From a virus (lineage: Duplodnaviria > Heunggongvirae > Uroviricota > Caudoviricetes), in IMG/VR virus record IMGVR_UViG_2711768038_000004: 27,608 nt of DNA. The stretch is one strand, 5' to 3'. Position numbers and translations under genes: made by a program. The notes beneath the pieces are model-generated. The model was given only the letters and a program-made list of their open reading frames with translations, was not told the DNA's origin and did not search any database. Shown piece after piece: positions 3,307 to 22,854 of this stretch (position 1 is the first letter of the stretch; each line of letters begins with the position of its first letter).

Positions 3307-3882
3307 CTACGGCAGTGCTGGCCATTCAATATCCTGTGCAGTTGATGTATCAACACGGTTCAGCAACACCCGATACTTTTTCCAGGCTTCCAGCAATGAG
3401 GTTTCTTCCTCCGTTGCGATTTCCAGATCTACAGCATCCTGAAGTGGCGCTATATGCTCACTGGCTACCTGCATCAGGCTGTTTTTTGTTTCTTCCGCCT
3501 CCCGGATCCGGAACAGTTTTTCTGCTTCCGTATCCTTCACCCAGACTGTACCGTTCCACTTCTGAAACTCCCCTTCCGGCGATAACCAGGTAACATTTTC
3601 CGGTAACGGACCGAGTTCAGAAATAAATAACGCGTCGCCGGAAGCCACGTCATAAACCATTTTACCCCGATGATCTTCAACGAGATGCCACGATGACTCA
3701 TCACTGTTGAAAACAGCCACGAAGCCAGCCGGAATATCTGGCGGTGCAATATCGGTACTGTTTGCTGGCAGACCTGTATGAGGCGGAATATATGCATCAC
3801 CTTCACCAATAAATTCATTAGTTCCGGCCAGCAGATTATAAATTTTTATGGTCCGTGGTTGTTCACTCATTCTGAATGCCAT
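3307..3882 (-). CDS. tfaQ: Tail fibre assembly protein TfaQ, 191 aa
   Basis: Recognised Tfa-family sequence; start overlaps the stop of the upstream tail-fibre ORF (3882). Confidence 0.8.
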
Positions 3883-6875: not shown

Positions 6876-7073
6876 CACTTTTTTAAATCCAACGACAGAC
6901 GGCTGGCATTTAAGTATTGTGAAATATTATCAAATGTAATCATCATTGATTTACAAAAGATACATTTTGCCCCGAAAGGATTCATGTCAGAAACATCAAA
7001 AGATGATGTTCTATACTGGGAACCATGACAACACGGGCATCTAAAGTGAATATGGTTTGTAATATTGTCTACC

Positions 7074-7286
7074 TCAAAGCGCCACTACATGAACAGCGGC
7101 AGGACCTTTAGGTCCGTTCTCAATACCAAATTCAACTTCCTGATTCTCAGTTAATGTTTTGAAATCGTTGCTCTGAATTGCTGAGAAATGGACAAACACA
7201 TCTTTGCTGCCATCTTTCGGCGTGATGAAACCAAAACCTTTTTCAGGGTTAAACCATTTCACTAAACCAGTCATTTTGTTAGACAT
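7074..7286 (-). CDS. cspI: Cold shock protein CspI, 70 aa
   Basis: [23 protein letters not shown]... RNP1/RNP2 motifs of the CspA family. Confidence 0.9.
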
Positions 7287-7648
7287 AATTATTACCTTTT
7301 GAAGAAATTAGCCCTTGGGCAGAATGGTCCGAAAAAAAATATCAGAGAGAAAAACCAACAAGGAAATCTCAAGAGGTACAAATAATAAAATTATAACAAT
7401 GACTGCTTCAGATAAATTTGTAACAAACCAGAACACCATTAACGCATGATTAACCACCCATAGCAAGGATTACTTTTGTAAAGAAAAACACAGCAATGAA
7501 AGAATAGCTTTATTTATTAATAAAACGTGTCATTCTGATTAAGACCTTTTATCTTACCCTTAAGATTTCAGGAATTTTGGCTCATGGAAGAGTCCTTTTT
7601 ATTTAAATTTTACATTCCGCGATGTAAATGTTCCGATTTAATATTACC

Positions 7649-8672
<1,024 letters not shown>

Positions 8673-8676
<4 letters not shown>

Positions 8677-8984
8677 AGATATTTATGATGAGGACGCTCG
8701 TGCTTATTGGCAGGATTTTCAATCTTAAAGGAGTACTGATGCTGCAGATAAGACTCAACTTTTTCTGACAATTTTTCTGCTACTTCCAGGAAGACTTGCC
8801 GGACGCTCCTTCTGGCTGCTGCCTCATAAAACTCCAGCGCAGCTCCTTCAACACGGTCCATGGCGACATCCAGGTCAAAAATTTCACCGTCAAAGCGTTC
8901 TTTGTCCTGTAAGGCTACAGTTACCGTAACTTTATTCTCAAAATTACGGACTCCTTTCACAACCAGTTCATAGTCTTGAGTCAT
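8673..8984 (-). CDS. ydfR: Qin prophage protein YdfR, 103 aa, sitting between holin and endolysin
   Basis: Recognised sequence; stop overlaps the rrrQ start (ATGA). Confidence 0.7.
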
Positions 8985-8988
8985 TGGA

Positions 8989-9204
8989 TTACTCTCCTCT
9001 CGCAGCCTTACGCCTGTCTTCTTTAATCTTGAAATAAAGATTTGTCAGATACGTCAGCAGGCCAAAAACCAGGCTACCCAGCACACCGATTGCAGCCCAC
9101 TGTGACGGAGTTACTTTATCGAGTAACTGCAATGCCCAGAAACCAGCATTACCCGCCGATGTGCCATAGGCAACACCTGTTGTTAACTTATCCATTGATT
9201 TCAT
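8989..9204 (-). CDS. essQ: Pinholin S21-like holin/antiholin, 71 aa
   Basis: MKSMDK dual-start motif and two TM helices ([25 protein letters not shown]); the ORF-track entry (to 9279) over-extends the N-terminus. Confidence 0.8.
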
Positions 9205-9674: not shown

Positions 9675-9957
9675 TTGAGATTGTGGTGCTTTTTGTGGGA
9701 GTCATCCACTTACGCACTTTGTTTTGCCATGCCAGCAGTTAGCTTCTGCTGTAAAACTATTCATGCAGCAAACCTGCACTTCACCACAATGGTTAGCATA
9801 CTTTTCCTGATTAAGATTTTGCCAAATATGCTAGCCATTGTTTCATGTATTGGACCTCCTTACTTTTTATTAAAGAGATCCAATATTCACTACTCTGTCC
9901 GTATCTCTACTCAGGCATCAGCCTTCTTCGTTATCGTATACAGACGAGCGATGAATT

Positions 9958-10173
9958 TTAATCAGTAATGATGACATTTGCTGCTGCAGGACCTTTAGCA
10001 CCACTCTCTATAGAGAAGGTAACCTTTTGACCTTCAAATAAGGTTCGATAATTATCATTCTGAATCGCAGAAAAATGCACAAACACATCTTTACTACCAT
10101 CAACAGGAGAAATAAAGCCGAAACCTTTATCAGCGTTAAACCATTTTACTAAACCAGTCATTTTATTTGACAT
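9958..10173 (-). CDS. cspB: Cold shock protein CspB, 71 aa
   Basis: [23 protein letters not shown]... Confidence 0.9.
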
Positions 10174-10473
10174 TCTACATTCCTTAACTTGAGCCTTTCG
10201 GCATAAATGGTTTGCATAACAGAAACGACTTCGTACTTAATTGGAGAGACTCAAAGAAGGAATAAGTGAATAACACCTGAAATGAGAACTGCTTTAGTAA
10301 ACTACTTCGTATATCGTCTGTTCTTCAAACCGACGCAATCATTAACGCATAGTTGAACATATGAAGCAATGTTTATTTTAGACATCCAGCCATCTTCAAC
10401 CCCATCAAAAAACTATAGCTTTCTTCAGGAACGTGTGTATAGTGCGCCAAGTTATCAGTATTAAGGAATTTTT

Positions 10474-13737: not shown

Positions 13738-13893
13738 TTACTCCTCAGGTTCGTAAGCTGTGAAGACAGCGACCTCCGTCTGGCCGGTTCGGATTCGTAC
13801 CTCGCAGAGGTCTTTCCTCGTTACCAGTGCCGTCACTATGACGGTTAAACAGATGACGATCAGGGCGATTAACATCGCCTTTTGCTGCTTCAT
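13738..13893 (-). CDS. hokD: Hok-family type I toxin HokD (RelF), 51 aa
   Basis: Translated by hand: MKQQKAMLIALIVICLTVIVTALVTRKDLCEVRIRTGQTEVAVFTAYEPEE. Below the ORF-track cutoff. Confidence 0.85.
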   Translation of the reverse strand: MKQQKAMLIALIVICLTVIVTALVTRKDLCEVRIRTGQTEVAVFTAYEPEE

Positions 13894-13964
13894 AGCCTGC
13901 TTCTCCTGTCAACGCAAAGCAGAAGTGTCACCTTCGGTGCGAAACAGAGATGTCATGCTTTGGT

Positions 13965-14252
13965 TCAGAGAATGCGTTTGACCGCCTCGCTATATACTTC
14001 CGAGCGTTCTCTTTTCCCAACAGAAATCACGAAAACGACAACTTTCTCGTCTATAACCTGGTATACAAGGCGATAGCCTGAAGACCGGAGCTTAATCTTG
14101 TAACAATCAGGCATACCACGGAGCTTGTTTGCTTCAATCCGGGGTGACTCAAGTACTTCAACCAGCTTCTTTTTCAACTGTTCACGTACCGTCGAGCCCA
14201 GCTTTCGCCATTCCTTTAGTGCCCGCTCGTCAAAATCCAGAAAATACGCCAT
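13965..14252 (-). CDS. relE: Type II toxin RelE (ribosome-dependent mRNA interferase), 95 aa
   Basis: MAYFLDFDERALKEWRKLGSTVREQ... Confidence 0.9.
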   Translation of the reverse strand: MAYFLDFDERALKEWRKLGSTVREQLKKKLVEVLESPRIEANKLRGMPDCYKIKLRSSGYRLVYQVIDEKVVVFVISVGKRERSEVYSEAVKRIL

Positions 14253-14491
14253 CAGAGTTCATCCAGCGTCACACGTACTGGCTTAGGATTACGAAGCCGT
14301 TCTTTCACTATCTCCACAAGTTCAGCATCTTCATCACTCAGGAGTGTCTGTTTGAACGGCAAGCGTTCATTGTCAGCGATATACTCGAGCATGAGACGAA
14401 GCGCTTCAGAAGGAGTTACACCCATTTTTTCAAGCGCGGCGTAAGAACGCGCTTTAAGTTCATCGTCAATACGCAGGTTAATGCTACCCAT
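14252..14491 (-). CDS. relB: Antitoxin RelB, 79 aa
   Basis: MGSINLRIDDELKARSYAALEKMGVTPSE...; stop overlaps the relE start. Confidence 0.9.
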   Translation of the reverse strand: MGSINLRIDDELKARSYAALEKMGVTPSEALRLMLEYIADNERLPFKQTLLSDEDAELVEIVKERLRNPKPVRVTLDEL

Positions 14492-14496
14492 GTCTT

Positions 14497-14530
14497 ACAC
14501 CTCTTGTAATTACAAATGTCATTACAAGTA
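14497..14530 (-). promoter_or_regulatory. relBE operator (relO): palindromes TTGTAATTACAA and TTGTAATGACA immediately upstream of relB
   Basis: Inverted repeats seen in sequence at 14504-14528. Confidence 0.6.
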
Positions 14531-14821
14531 TCGCACTACAACATGCTTAGGGCAAGTCACGAAGGAAGTCAGAAAGTAGTCGTAAGAACGGTGATCACTG
14601 TCCGCTTTGTGCCAGGAGCAGCCATTGCTAAGTCCATCCTGTATTGTGCAGGTCAGCTCGTTTTTAAAGAGTCCGGCCATCATCTTACTGGTACAGACAC
14701 CATATACTTTGTGACGGTCAGGCTACATATGCACAACTCAACTTATTCATCTATTTTTTGCTTTAGCATGTCAGTGTTGCTTTCTCGTCGGCGGGTGAGC
14801 GGTGACCTGACCTGTCGATAA
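14516..14821 (+). CDS. ydfV: Hypothetical 101-aa ORF at the position of ydfV; coding status doubtful
   Basis: ORF of the right length and position; no convincing RBS or motifs. Confidence 0.3.
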   Translation: MSLQVSHYNMLRASHEGSQKVVVRTVITVRFVPGAAIAKSILYCAGQLVFKESGHHLTGTDTIYFVTVRLHMHNSTYSSIFCFSMSVLLSRRRVSGDLTCR

Positions 14822-14973
14822 AGGAACGTAACACGTTTTATGCAACACCCGCATGCGGCAGAAAATTATTGCCGAACGTTTACCCCTGTCAACAAGCTTT
14901 ACTTTCTGAGGCGCGCCAGCCCGCGAGGAAAACAATCTGAACATCAAACAATTAATGACACAAGAAATACGAT

Positions 14974-15000
14974 TAAAGATTTTTTTGTGCATGCCGATAG
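14974..15000 (+). promoter_or_regulatory. Sigma-28 (FliA) class 3 promoter of flxA: TAAAGATT-N11-GCCGATAG
   Basis: Close match to the FliA consensus TAAAGTTT-N11-GCCGATAA, 24 bp upstream of the flxA start. Confidence 0.65.
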
Positions 15001-15023
15001 TGCTTTTTTAAAAGGAGAAATCT

Positions 15024-15356
15024 ATGTCTGTCACAATTCAGGGAAATACCTCAACCGTTATTTCAAACAACTCCGCCCCGGAAGGAACATCAGAAATAGC
15101 CAAAATCACAAGACAAATTCAGGTGCTGACTGAAAAGCTTGGGAAAATCTCATCGGAAGAGGGGATGACGACACAGCAGAAAAAAGAAATGGCTGCATTG
15201 GTACAGAAGCAAATTGAAAGCCTCTGGGCTCAACTGGAGCAGTTGTTAAGGCAGCAGGCAGAGAAAAAGAATGAAGACGCGACAGTTCAGCCTGATAAAA
15301 AAGAAGAGAAAAAAGACGATACAAATACCGCTGGCACCATTGATATTTACGTCTAA
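15024..15356 (+). CDS. flxA: FlxA, 110 aa (FliA-regulated protein)
   Basis: MSVTIQGNTSTVISNNSAPEGTSEIAKITRQIQ... Confidence 0.85.
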   Translation: MSVTIQGNTSTVISNNSAPEGTSEIAKITRQIQVLTEKLGKISSEEGMTTQQKKEMAALVQKQIESLWAQLEQLLRQQAEKKNEDATVQPDKKEEKKDDTNTAGTIDIYV

Positions 15357-15792
15357 GTGACAGCCGTATTGTGGCCCTCATCGGGCCACTTTTCGCCATC
15401 AGCCTTTTCTTTAAAGACATATTATCTTTGTATCATTTCTGATAGTTAACATTACAAGATATAAGTAATGGACGCACTCCCAATTAGTCTATTTAAATCG
15501 CCACGAGTTTAACTGACAACCCATGATCAATTATGAATTGCAACTATTTCTGTAGTCACTTTTGTGGGGACAGTCCACAAAACTGCCAACTTCCGCTTCT
15601 TGCTCTTAGCGGACATTAGCATAGGCTATTTACCATAACGCCTCATTACGCGCACCGCCCAGACTGACTCAGCGCGTTTCTGGCATATCCCCGGTAAAAC
15701 AAGTAACAAACCACCCGAAAATGAACACCAGAAACGCGACTTAAGAATCTACCCTATGAATGGATATGCACTCAACCGAATCGATCTTGGTT

Positions 15793-17106
15793 TCAATCTT
15801 TTTTATCGGGATCAGGCTTCTTTTTAGGTAACTTCGGGGGCTTAACTTGCTGATGACTTTGCGTTCGGCGCGTAAGCCAGGGATGGTCAGCTTTAGGTTT
15901 AACATAGTATTTTGAGCGTAAATCAATACGGGCATTATCCACTCGTTCATGGACACTCTTTTCATCATCCAGTGGTATAGGCTCCGGGCCATCAACATAC
16001 TTTTCCCAGCCCAGCGCTTTCCCGTCATACAGAACGTTAATTTCACCGTCAAAGTTCTCGCATACAGTAACAACCGAATGCCTAAGTCGATATCCCCGGC
16101 CCTCACTGCGTACCTGAAACGCACTGCTTTTGTACTGGAAAGTGAGATTTTTAGACAGAACGCGCTTCGCCTGTAGGCTGAAGATATAACCCAGTTCCTC
16201 TTCAGAATGGTGCACATCAAGATGAGCATTATCAGTAGTACGAGGCGACGTAGCGAACCGGTTGTTATAGGCTTCAATAAAGGTCGGCAACCATGCATTT
16301 GCTGTTTCAATATCACTGATATTCTGAAGCCGCATTTCTTTGACCAGCCTGTCCTGTAGTGTCTGATTGGCGCGCTCTACCCGCCCTTTTGCCTGCGGGC
16401 TGTTGGCATGGATTGGCTCGATGCCCAGTGTCTTTATCGCACGAGTGAACTGGGTCAGCTCACCTTCCCGCTCTGGGTTATTTACCCTGAATATACTGTG
16501 TCTATCAGAGTAGAGAGCGAGCGGTACGCCATGATCATTAAGGTAACCCCGGAGGGTTTCCATGTAAGCCCGGGTTGTTTCAGCAGGCACAAAACGCAAC
16601 GCCATCAACGCACTGGTGGCATCATCAATGAAAACGATCAGTGTACATCTGGGGCCTCGATTTTCAAACCAGTCATGAGGTGAGCCATCAATCTGGATCA
16701 GTTCACCGTAAGATGGTCGTCGCATGCGGCGTTGATATATACGGGCAATTTTACGACGGCGTTCACGCCATAACCCCTCTTCTATCATCCACTTTCTGAG
16801 AGTTTCAACGGATAAAGATAAACCGTGTATCTCGCGCAATTTTTCGCACGCAAACGTAGGTCCAAAATCAGCGTAACGGCCTTTGAGGAGTGAAATTACT
16901 GTTGCTCTGAATTCAGTAGAAAAGGAATTATTAGGACGCTTTCCACGTCGGTGGGAAACCAGACCAGAAGGCCCTTCATTTCTATACCGTTGCACCAGAC
17001 GTTTAACCTGCCGAATAGAAATGCCAATGCGTGCCGCAGCTTGTTCCTGAATAATCTGAAGTCGGTGGAGTTCCTTATGACTCATCGTAACAGTCTCTTT
17101 GATCAT
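15793..17106 (-). CDS. DDE transposase / integrase-core (rve) protein with N-terminal HTH, 437 aa, IS481-like architecture; element boundaries not identified
   Basis: N-terminal HTH (IGISIRQVKRLVQRY), DDE core (IQIDGSPHDWF...LIVFIDDATS...NSPQAKGRVERANQTL). A poly-G/A SD (GGGGGA) precedes the ATG at 17106. Confidence 0.65.
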   Translation of the reverse strand: MIKETVTMSHKELHRLQIIQEQAAARIGISIRQVKRLVQRYRNEGPSGLVSHRRGKRPNNSFSTEFRATVISLLKGRYADFGPTFACEKLREIHGLSLSVETLRKWMIEEGLWRERRRKIARIYQRRMRRPSYGELIQIDGSPHDWFENRGPRCTLIVFIDDATSALMALRFVPAETTRAYMETLRGYLNDHGVPLALYSDRHSIFRVNNPEREGELTQFTRAIKTLGIEPIHANSPQAKGRVERANQTLQDRLVKEMRLQNISDIETANAWLPTFIEAYNNRFATSPRTTDNAHLDVHHSEEELGYIFSLQAKRVLSKNLTFQYKSSAFQVRSEGRGYRLRHSVVTVCENFDGEINVLYDGKALGWEKYVDGPEPIPLDDEKSVHERVDNARIDLRSKYYVKPKADHPWLTRRTQSHQQVKPPKLPKKKPDPDKKD

Positions 17107-17440
17107 GAAAAATCCCCCAGAGAATTGTCTGGGGACATTTTAGAATGGTTCAAAGGGGACATTACAGCTTGGTGTTAACAATAGCCTGCTTCTCCGTGCC
17201 TTTCGGCACGTAAGAGGCTAACCTACATGTGTCTAGCATGAAATTGGCCTCAGATTAATGTTAAGCGTCTTGCAGGACGCGTAATGTTAACTGGGGCTTT
17301 TCTCTATCTGCCGTTGGTGTCCATGCCCGAGGCAGATAGCCTCAAGCACCCGCAGTCATTCTACTTAACTAAGATTTCCCCGCAAACCGTTTTTGTCCAG
17401 CACAGTAAATATCCAACTAAACCAATGGAGTTCGCTGTAT

Positions 17441-17620
17441 TTACCGCCAGTATTCAATGCACATGACCGCCATGAACACCCCTAAAAAAAGGGCATTTAT
17501 ATATCCAAATATTAATATCAAAACATCAACTTTTTCCATATACCTTGCTGTGAAGATGATGGGCATACATGATGCGAACAACCAGAACGCAACAAACAAA
17601 AACTGCAATGCGTTTTTCAT
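17441..17620 (-). CDS. Small membrane protein, 59 aa, two predicted TM helices
   Basis: MKNALQFLFVAFWLFASCMPIIFTARYMEKVDVLILIFGYINALFLGVFMAVMCIEYWR; perfect AGGAGG 4 nt upstream of the ATG at 17620. Confidence 0.5.
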   Translation of the reverse strand: MKNALQFLFVAFWLFASCMPIIFTARYMEKVDVLILIFGYINALFLGVFMAVMCIEYWR

Positions 17621-17874
17621 TATTCCTCCTACAATCAATGTGCAATTACATTTAAACACACCTCAATTTGGCCGGACATATAAATATCTAAACCAGAAAA
17701 AATCACTTACATAGCGTTACAAACTCTTTAGTCTAAAGGTTCATCGTAAAACATTCCCCATACTTATCAGTCCGTTCCGCGCCAGGTAGCTCATTGCCTT
17801 ATCTGGCAACCTGTAATCAGGTTTCCGCTTTTTCAGTTGGCTGGTCGTTTAACCGACATAGTTAATCCATTAAT

Positions 17875-18162
17875 CTAGTTGCCGGATGTTGGTGGATTTT
17901 CGCGTTTTAGTTGTTCATAAAAGTGCACAGCTTTAACCAGTTCTTCTGATGTAACTGGGACTGGTGAGGCAGTGAATAAGGCCTGAATTTGATAGTTCGG
18001 CCTGTCGTTACAATCCTCTTTTTTCGGTACATATTTCCAGTCACCAGACCACTACTTCCCCTGAAAGTCCGTAACGCCTTTTTTCACGTAGCGATATCGC
18101 CATGCCACTGGTTTTGCTTGCCCCGCCGTTTCATGCCCTTCCTGATAATTAATCTCGCTCAT
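17875..18162 (-). pseudogene. Hypothetical gene interrupted by an in-frame TAG (18052-18054): 36 codons, amber, 58 codons
   Basis: The frame stays open and protein-like across the TAG (MSEINYQEGHETAGQAKPVAWRYRYVKKGVTDFQGK*WSGDWKYVPKKEDCNDRPNYQIQALF...). Confidence 0.45.
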
Positions 18163-18350
18163 TCATCGCCCCACTCATCACAATATGCTTCGACCGGAGT
18201 TTTTCCCGCTTCATAGTCATCACGCTAGGATTCGACATCAGCAGCACTTCCACCGCGTAACTCACCATAGTCCATTAATAGTTCATCCCGCTCTTCAAAA
18301 CTGATGTTATATTTAGCTGAACAAAAATCAGCCACTTTGTTCTTCCTCAT
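18159..18350 (-). pseudogene. Hypothetical small gene interrupted by an in-frame TAG (18225-18227); its TGA stop overlaps the ATG of the downstream gene (ATGA)
   Basis: MRKNKVADFCSAKYNISFEERDELLMDYGELRGGSAADVES*RDDYEAGKTPVEAYCDEWGDE; the coupling signal is preserved. Confidence 0.35.
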
Positions 18351-18399
18351 CGTCTTTTATTTCGTGGTATGAGTAATTGCAGTAGTTAAAGAAAATTTC

Positions 18400-18510
18400 T
18401 TATGCTCCGTCATGAATTTCCTCAGGTGTTGCGTCATCGTCCACTTCGAATACATCCTCAAAATCTCCACCAGCTATTCCCGTTTCAATAATAATTTTGA
18501 ACTTTCGCAT
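18400..18510 (-). CDS. Hypothetical acidic 36-aa ORF (MRKFKIIIETGIAGGDFEDVFEVDDDATPEEIHDGA)
   Basis: Small ORF preceded by a GC hairpin; weak RBS. Confidence 0.2.
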   Translation of the reverse strand: MRKFKIIIETGIAGGDFEDVFEVDDDATPEEIHDGA

Positions 18511-22801: not shown

Positions 22802-22854
22802 TTTCTGGTGACGTTTGGCGGTATCAGTTTTACTCCGTGACTGCTCTGCCGCCC
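22802..22854 (+). ncRNA. dicF: DicF small RNA (53 nt; antisense inhibitor of ftsZ and other targets), processed from the operon transcript
   Basis: Matches my recollection of DicF (UUUCUGGUGACGUUUGGCGGUAUCAGUUUUACUCCGUGACUGCUCUGCCGCCC) followed by a U-run. Confidence 0.8.

Follow-up and report, generated by a model that had tools for sequence, protein, structure and literature searches.

A 59-codon orphan reading frame, probably a gene for a small membrane protein, in an accessory cassette of Qin-like Escherichia coli prophages

A minus-strand open reading frame (ORF) of 59 codons in a Qin-like lambdoid prophage of E. coli is very probably a genuine protein-coding gene, and its product is likely to be a two-helix membrane protein. 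The ORF was analyzed within a window of 27,608 nucleotides, by which we mean the whole stretch of DNA studied, with position 1 as its first letter. The case for a gene comes from a second, diverged subfamily of the same protein that is encoded in another prophage remnant of the species. The ORF lies in an optional low-GC cassette beside a hok/sok locus. As to what the protein does, we rate none of the specific functions considered here as better than rather unlikely.

The reading frame and its paralog

The features on which the coding argument turns are the following.

17441-17620, minus strand: 59-amino-acid (aa) coding sequence for a predicted two-helix inner-membrane protein (from the sequence, the paralog comparison, and AlphaFold2)
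17625-17630, minus strand: Shine-Dalgarno (SD) sequence AGGAGG, separated from the ATG by the 4-nt spacer AATA (from the sequence)
L093 5062-5241 (E. coli ATCC 25922), the same as L092 2501-2680: paralogous 59-aa ORF (found by tblastn)

The frame runs from the ATG at 17620-17618 to the TAA at 17443-17441 and encodes MKNALQFLFVAFWLFASCMPIIFTARYMEKVDVLILIFGYINALFLGVFMAVMCIEYWR. An earlier, sequence-only reading of the window had given the coordinates of the ORF exactly, leaving the minus strand unstated, and its AGGAGG at 4 nt from the ATG is indeed there, at 17630-17625 in front of AATA. Of the 29 distinct alleles (the decayed copy of locus L089 excluded), 8 have AGGGGG as the SD sequence. The longest version of the frame opens at a GTG at 17659 and would give 72 aa. 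Because the paralog has no in-frame extension 5' of its start, we take the ATG at 17620 to be the conserved start; the 72-aa GTG-start version found in some records is probably an over-call. No significant structure burying the ribosome-binding site was predicted (fold z score, -0.38), the fold of the whole cassette reached a z score of only -1.8, and an Rfam scan of the window placed no family over the ORF.

The second subfamily, a 59-aa ORF with the product MRKILMYLCISIWIVISCVPIILTSEYLTEASIMALMFGHANALCIGVFISIIYIECWR, is carried by B2 strains, including ATCC 25922, ST131, and APEC O1 strains, in what is left of a decayed prophage at the Rac attachment region, between ttcA and uspF. No other intact ORF of at least 40 aa is present in the surrounding stretch of about 1.2 kb with 30 to 35% GC, and the remnant also contains integrase and DUF1627 fragments as well as a permease pseudogene. 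An extended -10 element, TGaTATAAT (a consensus match only), lies about 75 nt 5' of the paralog (L092 2418-2426), and a search of the neighborhood revealed no hok-like element beside it. The window protein and the paralog are of equal length and align without gaps, with start and stop positions in common, at 41% aa and 59% nucleotide identity; the identity at the three codon positions was 58, 71, and 47%. The Nei-Gojobori method gave a dN of 0.45 and a saturated dS of 2.3, that is, a dN/dS of about 0.19.

As a neutral control, 20,000 divergences were simulated with a number of substitutions equal to that observed between the subfamilies. The frame remained open in 2.3% of them, the pN/pS was at or below the observed value in 0.035%, and the two occurred jointly in 0 of 20,000. 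In each of the remaining frames, one or both of the sequences contained stops, and the three antisense frames gave pN/pS values of 0.64 to 1.24. It is because the paralog has kept the frame, at a dN/dS of this order and beyond anything seen in the neutral simulations, that we consider the sense ORF to be very probably a real coding gene.

The variation within each subfamily is of a different kind. All the full-length copies sampled (127 of the window type and 21 of the paralog) turned out to be intact, and at an identity of at least 95% this would be expected of neutral DNA too. The polymorphisms comprised 10 nonsynonymous and 0 synonymous changes, namely, A16V, V31I, I37M, Y40H, L44I, M53T, and Y57C in the window type and M6V, S11N, and A31V in the paralog. 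These substitutions are conservative, two of them (I37M and Y40H) returning to the paralog state. The 10:0 ratio is compatible with neutrality (P of about 0.1) and incompatible with a dN/dS of 0.19 (P of about 3e-4). It fits a relaxed constraint in recent time, with the reservation that it comes from only 10 sites and points in the direction opposite that of the paralog test. The ORF was at the same time the least diverse segment of its neighborhood, with a nucleotide diversity (pi) of 0.010; the corresponding values were 0.021 to 0.023 for the non-coding flanks, 0.062 for the hok leader, and 0.129 for the end of the upstream gene. Judging from these comparisons, the long-term constraint is clear, and its present-day strength is uncertain.

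It is quite improbable that the frame is a chance ORF in an AT-rich spacer, hydrophobic only through the T-rich codons for Phe, Leu, and Ile and giving rise to no functional protein. Taken alone, the combination of SD sequence, ATG, and open frame is a weak signal that lies within chance: AGGAGG-N3-10-ATG followed by at least 50 open codons arose at least once in 12% of 300 composition-preserving block shuffles of the window. A chance origin would also suit the open antisense strand, the failure of PGAP to call the frame in any of the rows sampled, the lack of a family match, the existence of frameshift alleles, and the excess of nonsynonymous changes inside the subfamilies. Against it stand the paralog, which retains all 59 codons between the same start and stop at 41% aa identity, the outcome of the neutral simulations, and the lower diversity of the frame than of its own non-coding flanks. 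It is this comparative evidence, rather than the bare SD and ORF pattern, that in our reading of the sequences establishes the gene. Barely credible is the alternative that the plus strand, with an antisense ORF of 85 aa (17457-17714), holds the real gene. This ORF exceeds the sense ORF in length, and gene callers chose it in the phages PhiR42_1 ('hypothetical protein') and vB_EcoS-640R1 ('hornerin'), but it opposes the direction of the surrounding operon, nothing of at least 40 aa is present antisense at the paralogous locus, and the corresponding frame there has 2 stops and a pN/pS of 0.90. These last two values indicate that the antisense annotation in the phage records is wrong.

The records concerned are PV340562 (PhiR42_1) and ON470612 (vB_EcoS-640R1), which annotate an antisense ORF of 83 to 85 aa; the match of a further record, ON470619 (vB_EcoS-813R8), rests on the same 'hornerin' feature.

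The predicted protein and the extent of its family

The Kyte-Doolittle profile (19-residue windows) had two maxima, 2.1 around residues 5 to 25 and 2.4 around residues 33 to 52, and AlphaFold2 placed helices at residues 2 to 24 and 31 to 58 with a mean pLDDT of 73. Both agree with the small hydrophobic protein with two transmembrane (TM) segments that had been proposed from the sequence. The N terminus carries K2 in the window type or R2 and K3 in the paralog, the loop carries R26, E29, K30, and D32 (net charge, 0) or E26 and E30 (net charge, -2), and the charged residues at the C-terminal end are E56 and R59. By the positive-inside rule, these charges suggest that the protein is probably an N-in/C-in hairpin with a periplasmic loop. 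The residues conserved across the subfamilies are W13; S17-C18-x-P20-I21-I22-x-T24; Y27; F38-G39-x-x-N42-A43-L44-x-x-G47-V48-F49; and I55-E56-x-W58-R59. The second helix (TM2) thus combines a conserved N42 with the small-xxx-small motif G39xxxA43xxxG47, and a buried Asn next to a face of this type is typical of surfaces through which helices associate. A Foldseek search of the AlphaFold2 model against BFVD and PDB returned generic helical hairpins only (ATP-synthase c-subunit-like), all with an E value of >1, and was uninformative.

The DNA of the ORF was present in 1,568 of 5,426 complete E. coli genomes (29%), always at an identity of at least 95%, and in the three sequenced phages PhiR42_1, vB_EcoS-640R1, and vB_EcoS-813R8, so that the conservation in related prophages that the sequence-only reading had named as a check was found. 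The paralog occurred in 1,045 of the 5,426 genomes (19%), with an identity of at least 99% in 1,038 of the 1,045. Beyond these two groups, the searches yielded next to nothing. A search of 5.8 billion word-indexed proteins with the single sequence recovered no homolog below 74% identity over the aligned part; many of the homologs were partial, and all were from E. coli or Shigella wherever an organism was named. With a two-sequence profile, the sole addition from the same set was the paralog subfamily. An exhaustive HMMER search of 1.84 billion representatives likewise recovered the two subfamilies only (two further hits, P0055 and P0056, are long hydrophobic proteins with multiple hydrophobic stretches and were judged spurious), and the GTDB species-representative genomes contained 3 loci, all in E. 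coli or Shigella. No third subfamily was found in IMG/VR or metagenomes, tblastn against phages and plasmids gave nothing past the two subfamilies, and no intermediates between them appeared in any search. We therefore regard the two subfamilies, as far as these sequence collections reach, as a taxonomically restricted orphan family of Escherichia/Shigella prophage DNA.

No Pfam, PHROG, NCBIfam, or PADLOC model matched the protein, and for PADLOC, the number of families was 0 for both subfamilies at E values up to 10. A match of the paralog to DUF4212 (E value, 0.07) was below threshold and was discounted. The peptide sequences had no match in a full-text literature search. PGAP/RefSeq had no annotation at the ORF in 60 sampled rows, drawn from across the match ranking, nor at the paralog in 40, and many draft annotations, exclusively of E. 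coli and Shigella, call the protein 'hypothetical protein' or 'membrane protein'. K-12-type genomes match only positions 15300 to 15977 of the window and then run into ydfX. Since K-12 lacks the segment in question, including the small ORF, the hok leader, and the nin and replication genes of the window, neither the small-protein surveys of K-12 nor the published ribosome-profiling sets could cover the gene. Small membrane proteins are systematically overlooked by annotation, and the ORF would be a clean example of a real gene dropped by the pipelines. It appears to be a previously uncharacterized gene, belonging to an orphan family, missing from RefSeq, and represented by the wrong strand in the phage records.

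The accessory cassette and the hok/sok locus

The surroundings of the ORF comprise the following features.

17741-18162, minus strand: decayed nin-region gene with a frameshift and an internal stop, ending with the TGA at 17743-17741 (PGAP on identical DNA, offset 701)
17400-17740, minus strand: 340-nt low-GC cassette carrying the ORF (from the alignment to L006, the composition, and 128 loci)
17181-17195, with a second copy at 13892-13906, strand not applicable: 15-bp target-site duplication ATAGCCTGCTTCTCC (from the empty-site comparison)
17180-17351, minus strand: hok/sok leader (Rfam RF01794, 104 bits against a gathering score of 59)
13907-17180, minus strand: 3,274-bp element of the IS1202 family (ISNCY) that splits the hok locus (from the inverted repeats, the target-site duplication, and the empty site)
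15793-17106, minus strand: 437-aa DDE transposase, the 'DDE gene' of the earlier reading (NCBIfam ISNCY_2, 456 bits)
13738-13893, minus strand: hokD ORF, the part of the split hok locus beyond the element, which has come to lie downstream of relBE (from the sequence)

Identical DNA of complete genomes is annotated, going from the left end of the window to the right, with nohA, the lysis cassette, cspB/cspF, quuQ (ydfT), rem, hokD, relE, relB, ydfV, flxA, ydfW, the ISNCY transposase, two pseudogenes, a methyltransferase, DUF977, replication genes, dicC, dicA, dicF/dicB, an exonuclease, and an integrase. The early-right operon (dicC, followed by replication, nin, and Q) is on the minus strand and shares its direction with the ORF. 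This annotation bears out the early-right location suggested from the sequence, which here is the nin region of a lambdoid prophage, and the decayed genes that had been noticed upstream correspond to the PGAP pseudogenes at 17741-18162 and 18328-18510. An intact 171-aa relative of the nearer one is WP_044311238.1.

The GC content was 0.34 to 0.38 over positions 17400 to 17760 versus 0.42 to 0.51 in the flanks. In C8-type prophages (L006), the interval from the last nin stop codon to the hok promoter region is filled by a 73-nt spacer instead of the 340-nt segment, and the cassette is therefore an optional accessory segment. Throughout the 128 related loci, the upstream gene end was always the same, and the hok/sok leader was found downstream wherever the sequence sufficed. 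In a consensus scan, no promoter-like site appeared 5' of the window ORF and no terminator on the way from the ORF to the hok promoter region.

The hok/sok leader ends at the hok start codon, where the 3,274-bp element sits. The ends of the element are 28-nt imperfect inverted repeats at 13907-13934 and 17153-17180 (21/28, TGT...ACA), and its cargo consists of the transposase together with ydfW, flxA, ydfV, relB, and relE. The 15-bp target duplication includes the hok SD sequence and the first bases of the hok ATG, and ATAGCCTGCTTCTCC is present once at the empty site in strain M23917 (L004). The IS1202 family is marked by TGT/ACA ends and long duplications, and for the relatives of ISEsa1, no detectable target-site duplication has been reported (PMC10132070). 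The integration of relBE into hokD is already in the literature, as cited in PMC6379469; our literature search found no description of the transposon boundaries and the target-site duplication at hokD. The order relBE-hokD of Qin ('relBEF') is explained by the insertion of an IS1202-family element exactly at the hok start codon, with a duplication that re-creates an SD sequence and an ATG for hokD and leaves an orphaned hok/sok leader at 17351-17180.

The insertion point is 260 nt downstream of the ORF, which thus lies 261 to 440 nt outside the element. In 68 of the 128 loci, the ORF is found beside an uninterrupted hok locus without the DDE gene, and the insertion is present in 51 of the 128. 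A passenger status of the ORF in the DDE element was rejected on the grounds of the inverted-repeat and target-duplication boundaries and of these 68 loci. Since the transposase belongs to a separate, later insertion, its proximity to the ORF is incidental. The earlier description, which placed the ORF between the decayed genes and the DDE gene, holds for the position and missed the hok/sok leader (17351-17180) in between, while the link implied by calling it upstream of the DDE gene does not hold.

A terminator-like hairpin with a T-run lies on the plus strand at 17808-17833, opposite the decayed nin gene that immediately precedes the cassette; no plus-strand promoter was found to match it. 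Elsewhere in the window, Rfam matches at the gathering level were obtained for IS009 RNA (3341-3539, minus strand, 226 bits), cspA-type thermoregulator leaders (7047-7432 and 9942-10334, both on the minus strand, of cspI and cspB), and the DicF sRNA (22803-22854, plus strand), all of them expected Qin features.

Candidate roles and decayed alleles

The explanation that we prefer, moderately probable as a whole, joins a coding gene of an orphan family, an inner-membrane hairpin, the cassette, early-right expression, and packing within the membrane. The 59-aa product would be a helical hairpin of the inner membrane, with both termini (the N terminus being basic) in the cytoplasm and a short periplasmic loop of acidic or neutral character, and its cassette would ride between the last nin-region gene and the hok/sok locus of Qin-like prophages. 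We infer this topology, as well as expression of the ORF from the early-right transcript during induction, which seems the most likely mode because the consensus scan detected neither a promoter nor a terminator belonging to the ORF. The missing promoter leaves expression from a repressed or cryptic prophage without an explanation and counts against our preferred explanation. Action at the membrane is speculative: it might proceed through intramembrane helix-helix packing, which we favor because of the conserved Asn and the small-xxx-small face on helix 2, and the partner could be either the protein itself, with an oligomer perturbing the membrane, or a host membrane protein, with modulation or exclusion as the result. 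Toxin, superinfection-exclusion, and holin-like roles received no sequence, profile, or fold support in the library and structure searches. The ORF by itself opens no long-standing question. It is a tractable candidate for phage-borne hairpin peptides, in which residues N42, G39, A43, and G47 and the IE-WR end are testable, and natural strains are at hand for both subfamilies (ATCC 8739 for the window type and ATCC 25922 for the paralog).

A rather unlikely role is that of a membrane-damaging toxin or pinholin-like depolarizer, in which an oligomer formed through N42 and the G39xxxA43xxxG47 motif would dissipate the proton-motive force early in lytic growth, for example, for host arrest or abortive exclusion. 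What speaks for it is resemblance only, namely, the size, the two TM segments, the motif in TM2, and, in the sampled copies, the adjoining membrane toxin locus hok. The product does resemble the class II holins and pinholins (S21-68 of phage 21 and EssQ) in being a small phage inner-membrane protein with two TM helices that probably has the N-in/C-in topology and whose TM2 bears a glycine-zipper-like, small-xxx-small motif. EssQ, the S21-type pinholin of the same prophage (8989-9204), starts with MKSMDK and has a dual start and a charged tail, whereas the ORF product ends with IEYWR, with no charged tail, and has a single Met before residue 19, with no dual start. Moreover, some 8 kb separate the ORF, in the nin region, from the lysis cassette (essQ, ydfR, rrrQ, and rzpQ; approximately 7649-9204), which includes a holin gene already; the ORF has no Pfam or PHROG holin match, and its hhalign probability against EssQ was 0.2%; membership in a holin family was rejected on these grounds. 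With the Hok/Gef type I toxins, the product shares the character of a small hydrophobic prophage peptide and, in the sampled window-type copies, the proximity to hok/sok. In contrast to Hok, with its one helix, it has two, and it lacks a Hok/Gef Pfam match; the RF01794 match ends at 17351, no Rfam antisense element lies over the ORF, the ribosome-binding site is not buried in structure, and the paralog has no hok neighbor. A Hok/Gef toxin was therefore rejected, given the two helices, the lack of a domain match, and the lack of a known antisense or leader element. For a depolarizing toxin in general, no antisense RNA or leader structure of the type I style was found, and a strong, unsequestered SD sequence would demand tight transcriptional control.

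A role in superinfection exclusion or host modulation, through binding to an inner-membrane protein of the host (a transporter or a factor of phage DNA entry) for the benefit of the lysogen, strikes us as improbable too. It could explain an intact ORF among decaying phage genes: the window copy is intact beside two pseudogenes, and the paralog is the only intact ORF in the decayed Rac-site remnant of 1,045 genomes, where it is preceded by the TGnTATAAT extended -10 sequence. The cassette is also moron-like in its presence or absence between the same neighbors and in a GC content that differs from that of the flanks. Unlike morons, the ORF has no promoter or terminator of its own in the consensus scan, in which the window copy was not preceded by any promoter-like site; matches to PADLOC or PHROG models are likewise lacking, intactness at an identity of at least 95% is expected even of neutral sequence, and the recent polymorphism is wholly nonsynonymous. 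T4 Imm and the HK97 moron gp15 are short phage membrane proteins that block superinfection. The ORF product resembles them in size, topology, and position as accessory cargo only, with no homology and, again, no dedicated promoter or terminator. AcrZ, MgtS, and SgrT are small modulators of E. coli membrane proteins, mostly single-helix and encoded in the core genome. Like them, the product is under 60 aa, hydrophobic, and missed by annotation, and they act via helix-helix contacts; unlike them, it comes from a prophage and has two helices, and its sequence shows no relationship to theirs. A broader conjecture, which we put forward as tentative and doubtful, is that the subfamilies represent a new family of prophage membrane peptides, domesticated and restricted to Escherichia, kept intact while the nearby phage genes decay (in the Qin nin region and in the Rac-site remnant of phylogroup B2) and using the Asn and small-xxx-small face to exclude phages or to modulate a host membrane machine. 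Members of such a family might also cooperate with the adjacent hok/sok locus.

Disrupted alleles of the ORF occur in the protein collection, carrying either insertions or frameshifts at a T7 run (codons 44 to 46). This homopolymer in TM2 (17480-17492; CCCTTTTTTTAGGGG on the minus strand) is a recurrent site of +1/-1 frameshifts. The products are 55 aa long and end with ...FFRGVHGGHVH or ...GGVHGGHVH, and both real slippage and assembly errors could account for them; the frameshift clusters P0019, P0022, P0024, and P0025 have 3 to 24 member sequences each. A decayed ORF is also present in E. coli ECMA0423 (L089 2486-2680), with three 1-nt deletions, a 3-nt insertion, and an SD sequence changed from AGGAGG to TGTCGG. 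This copy adjoins an intact hok gene, and the ORF can therefore disappear while hok stays.
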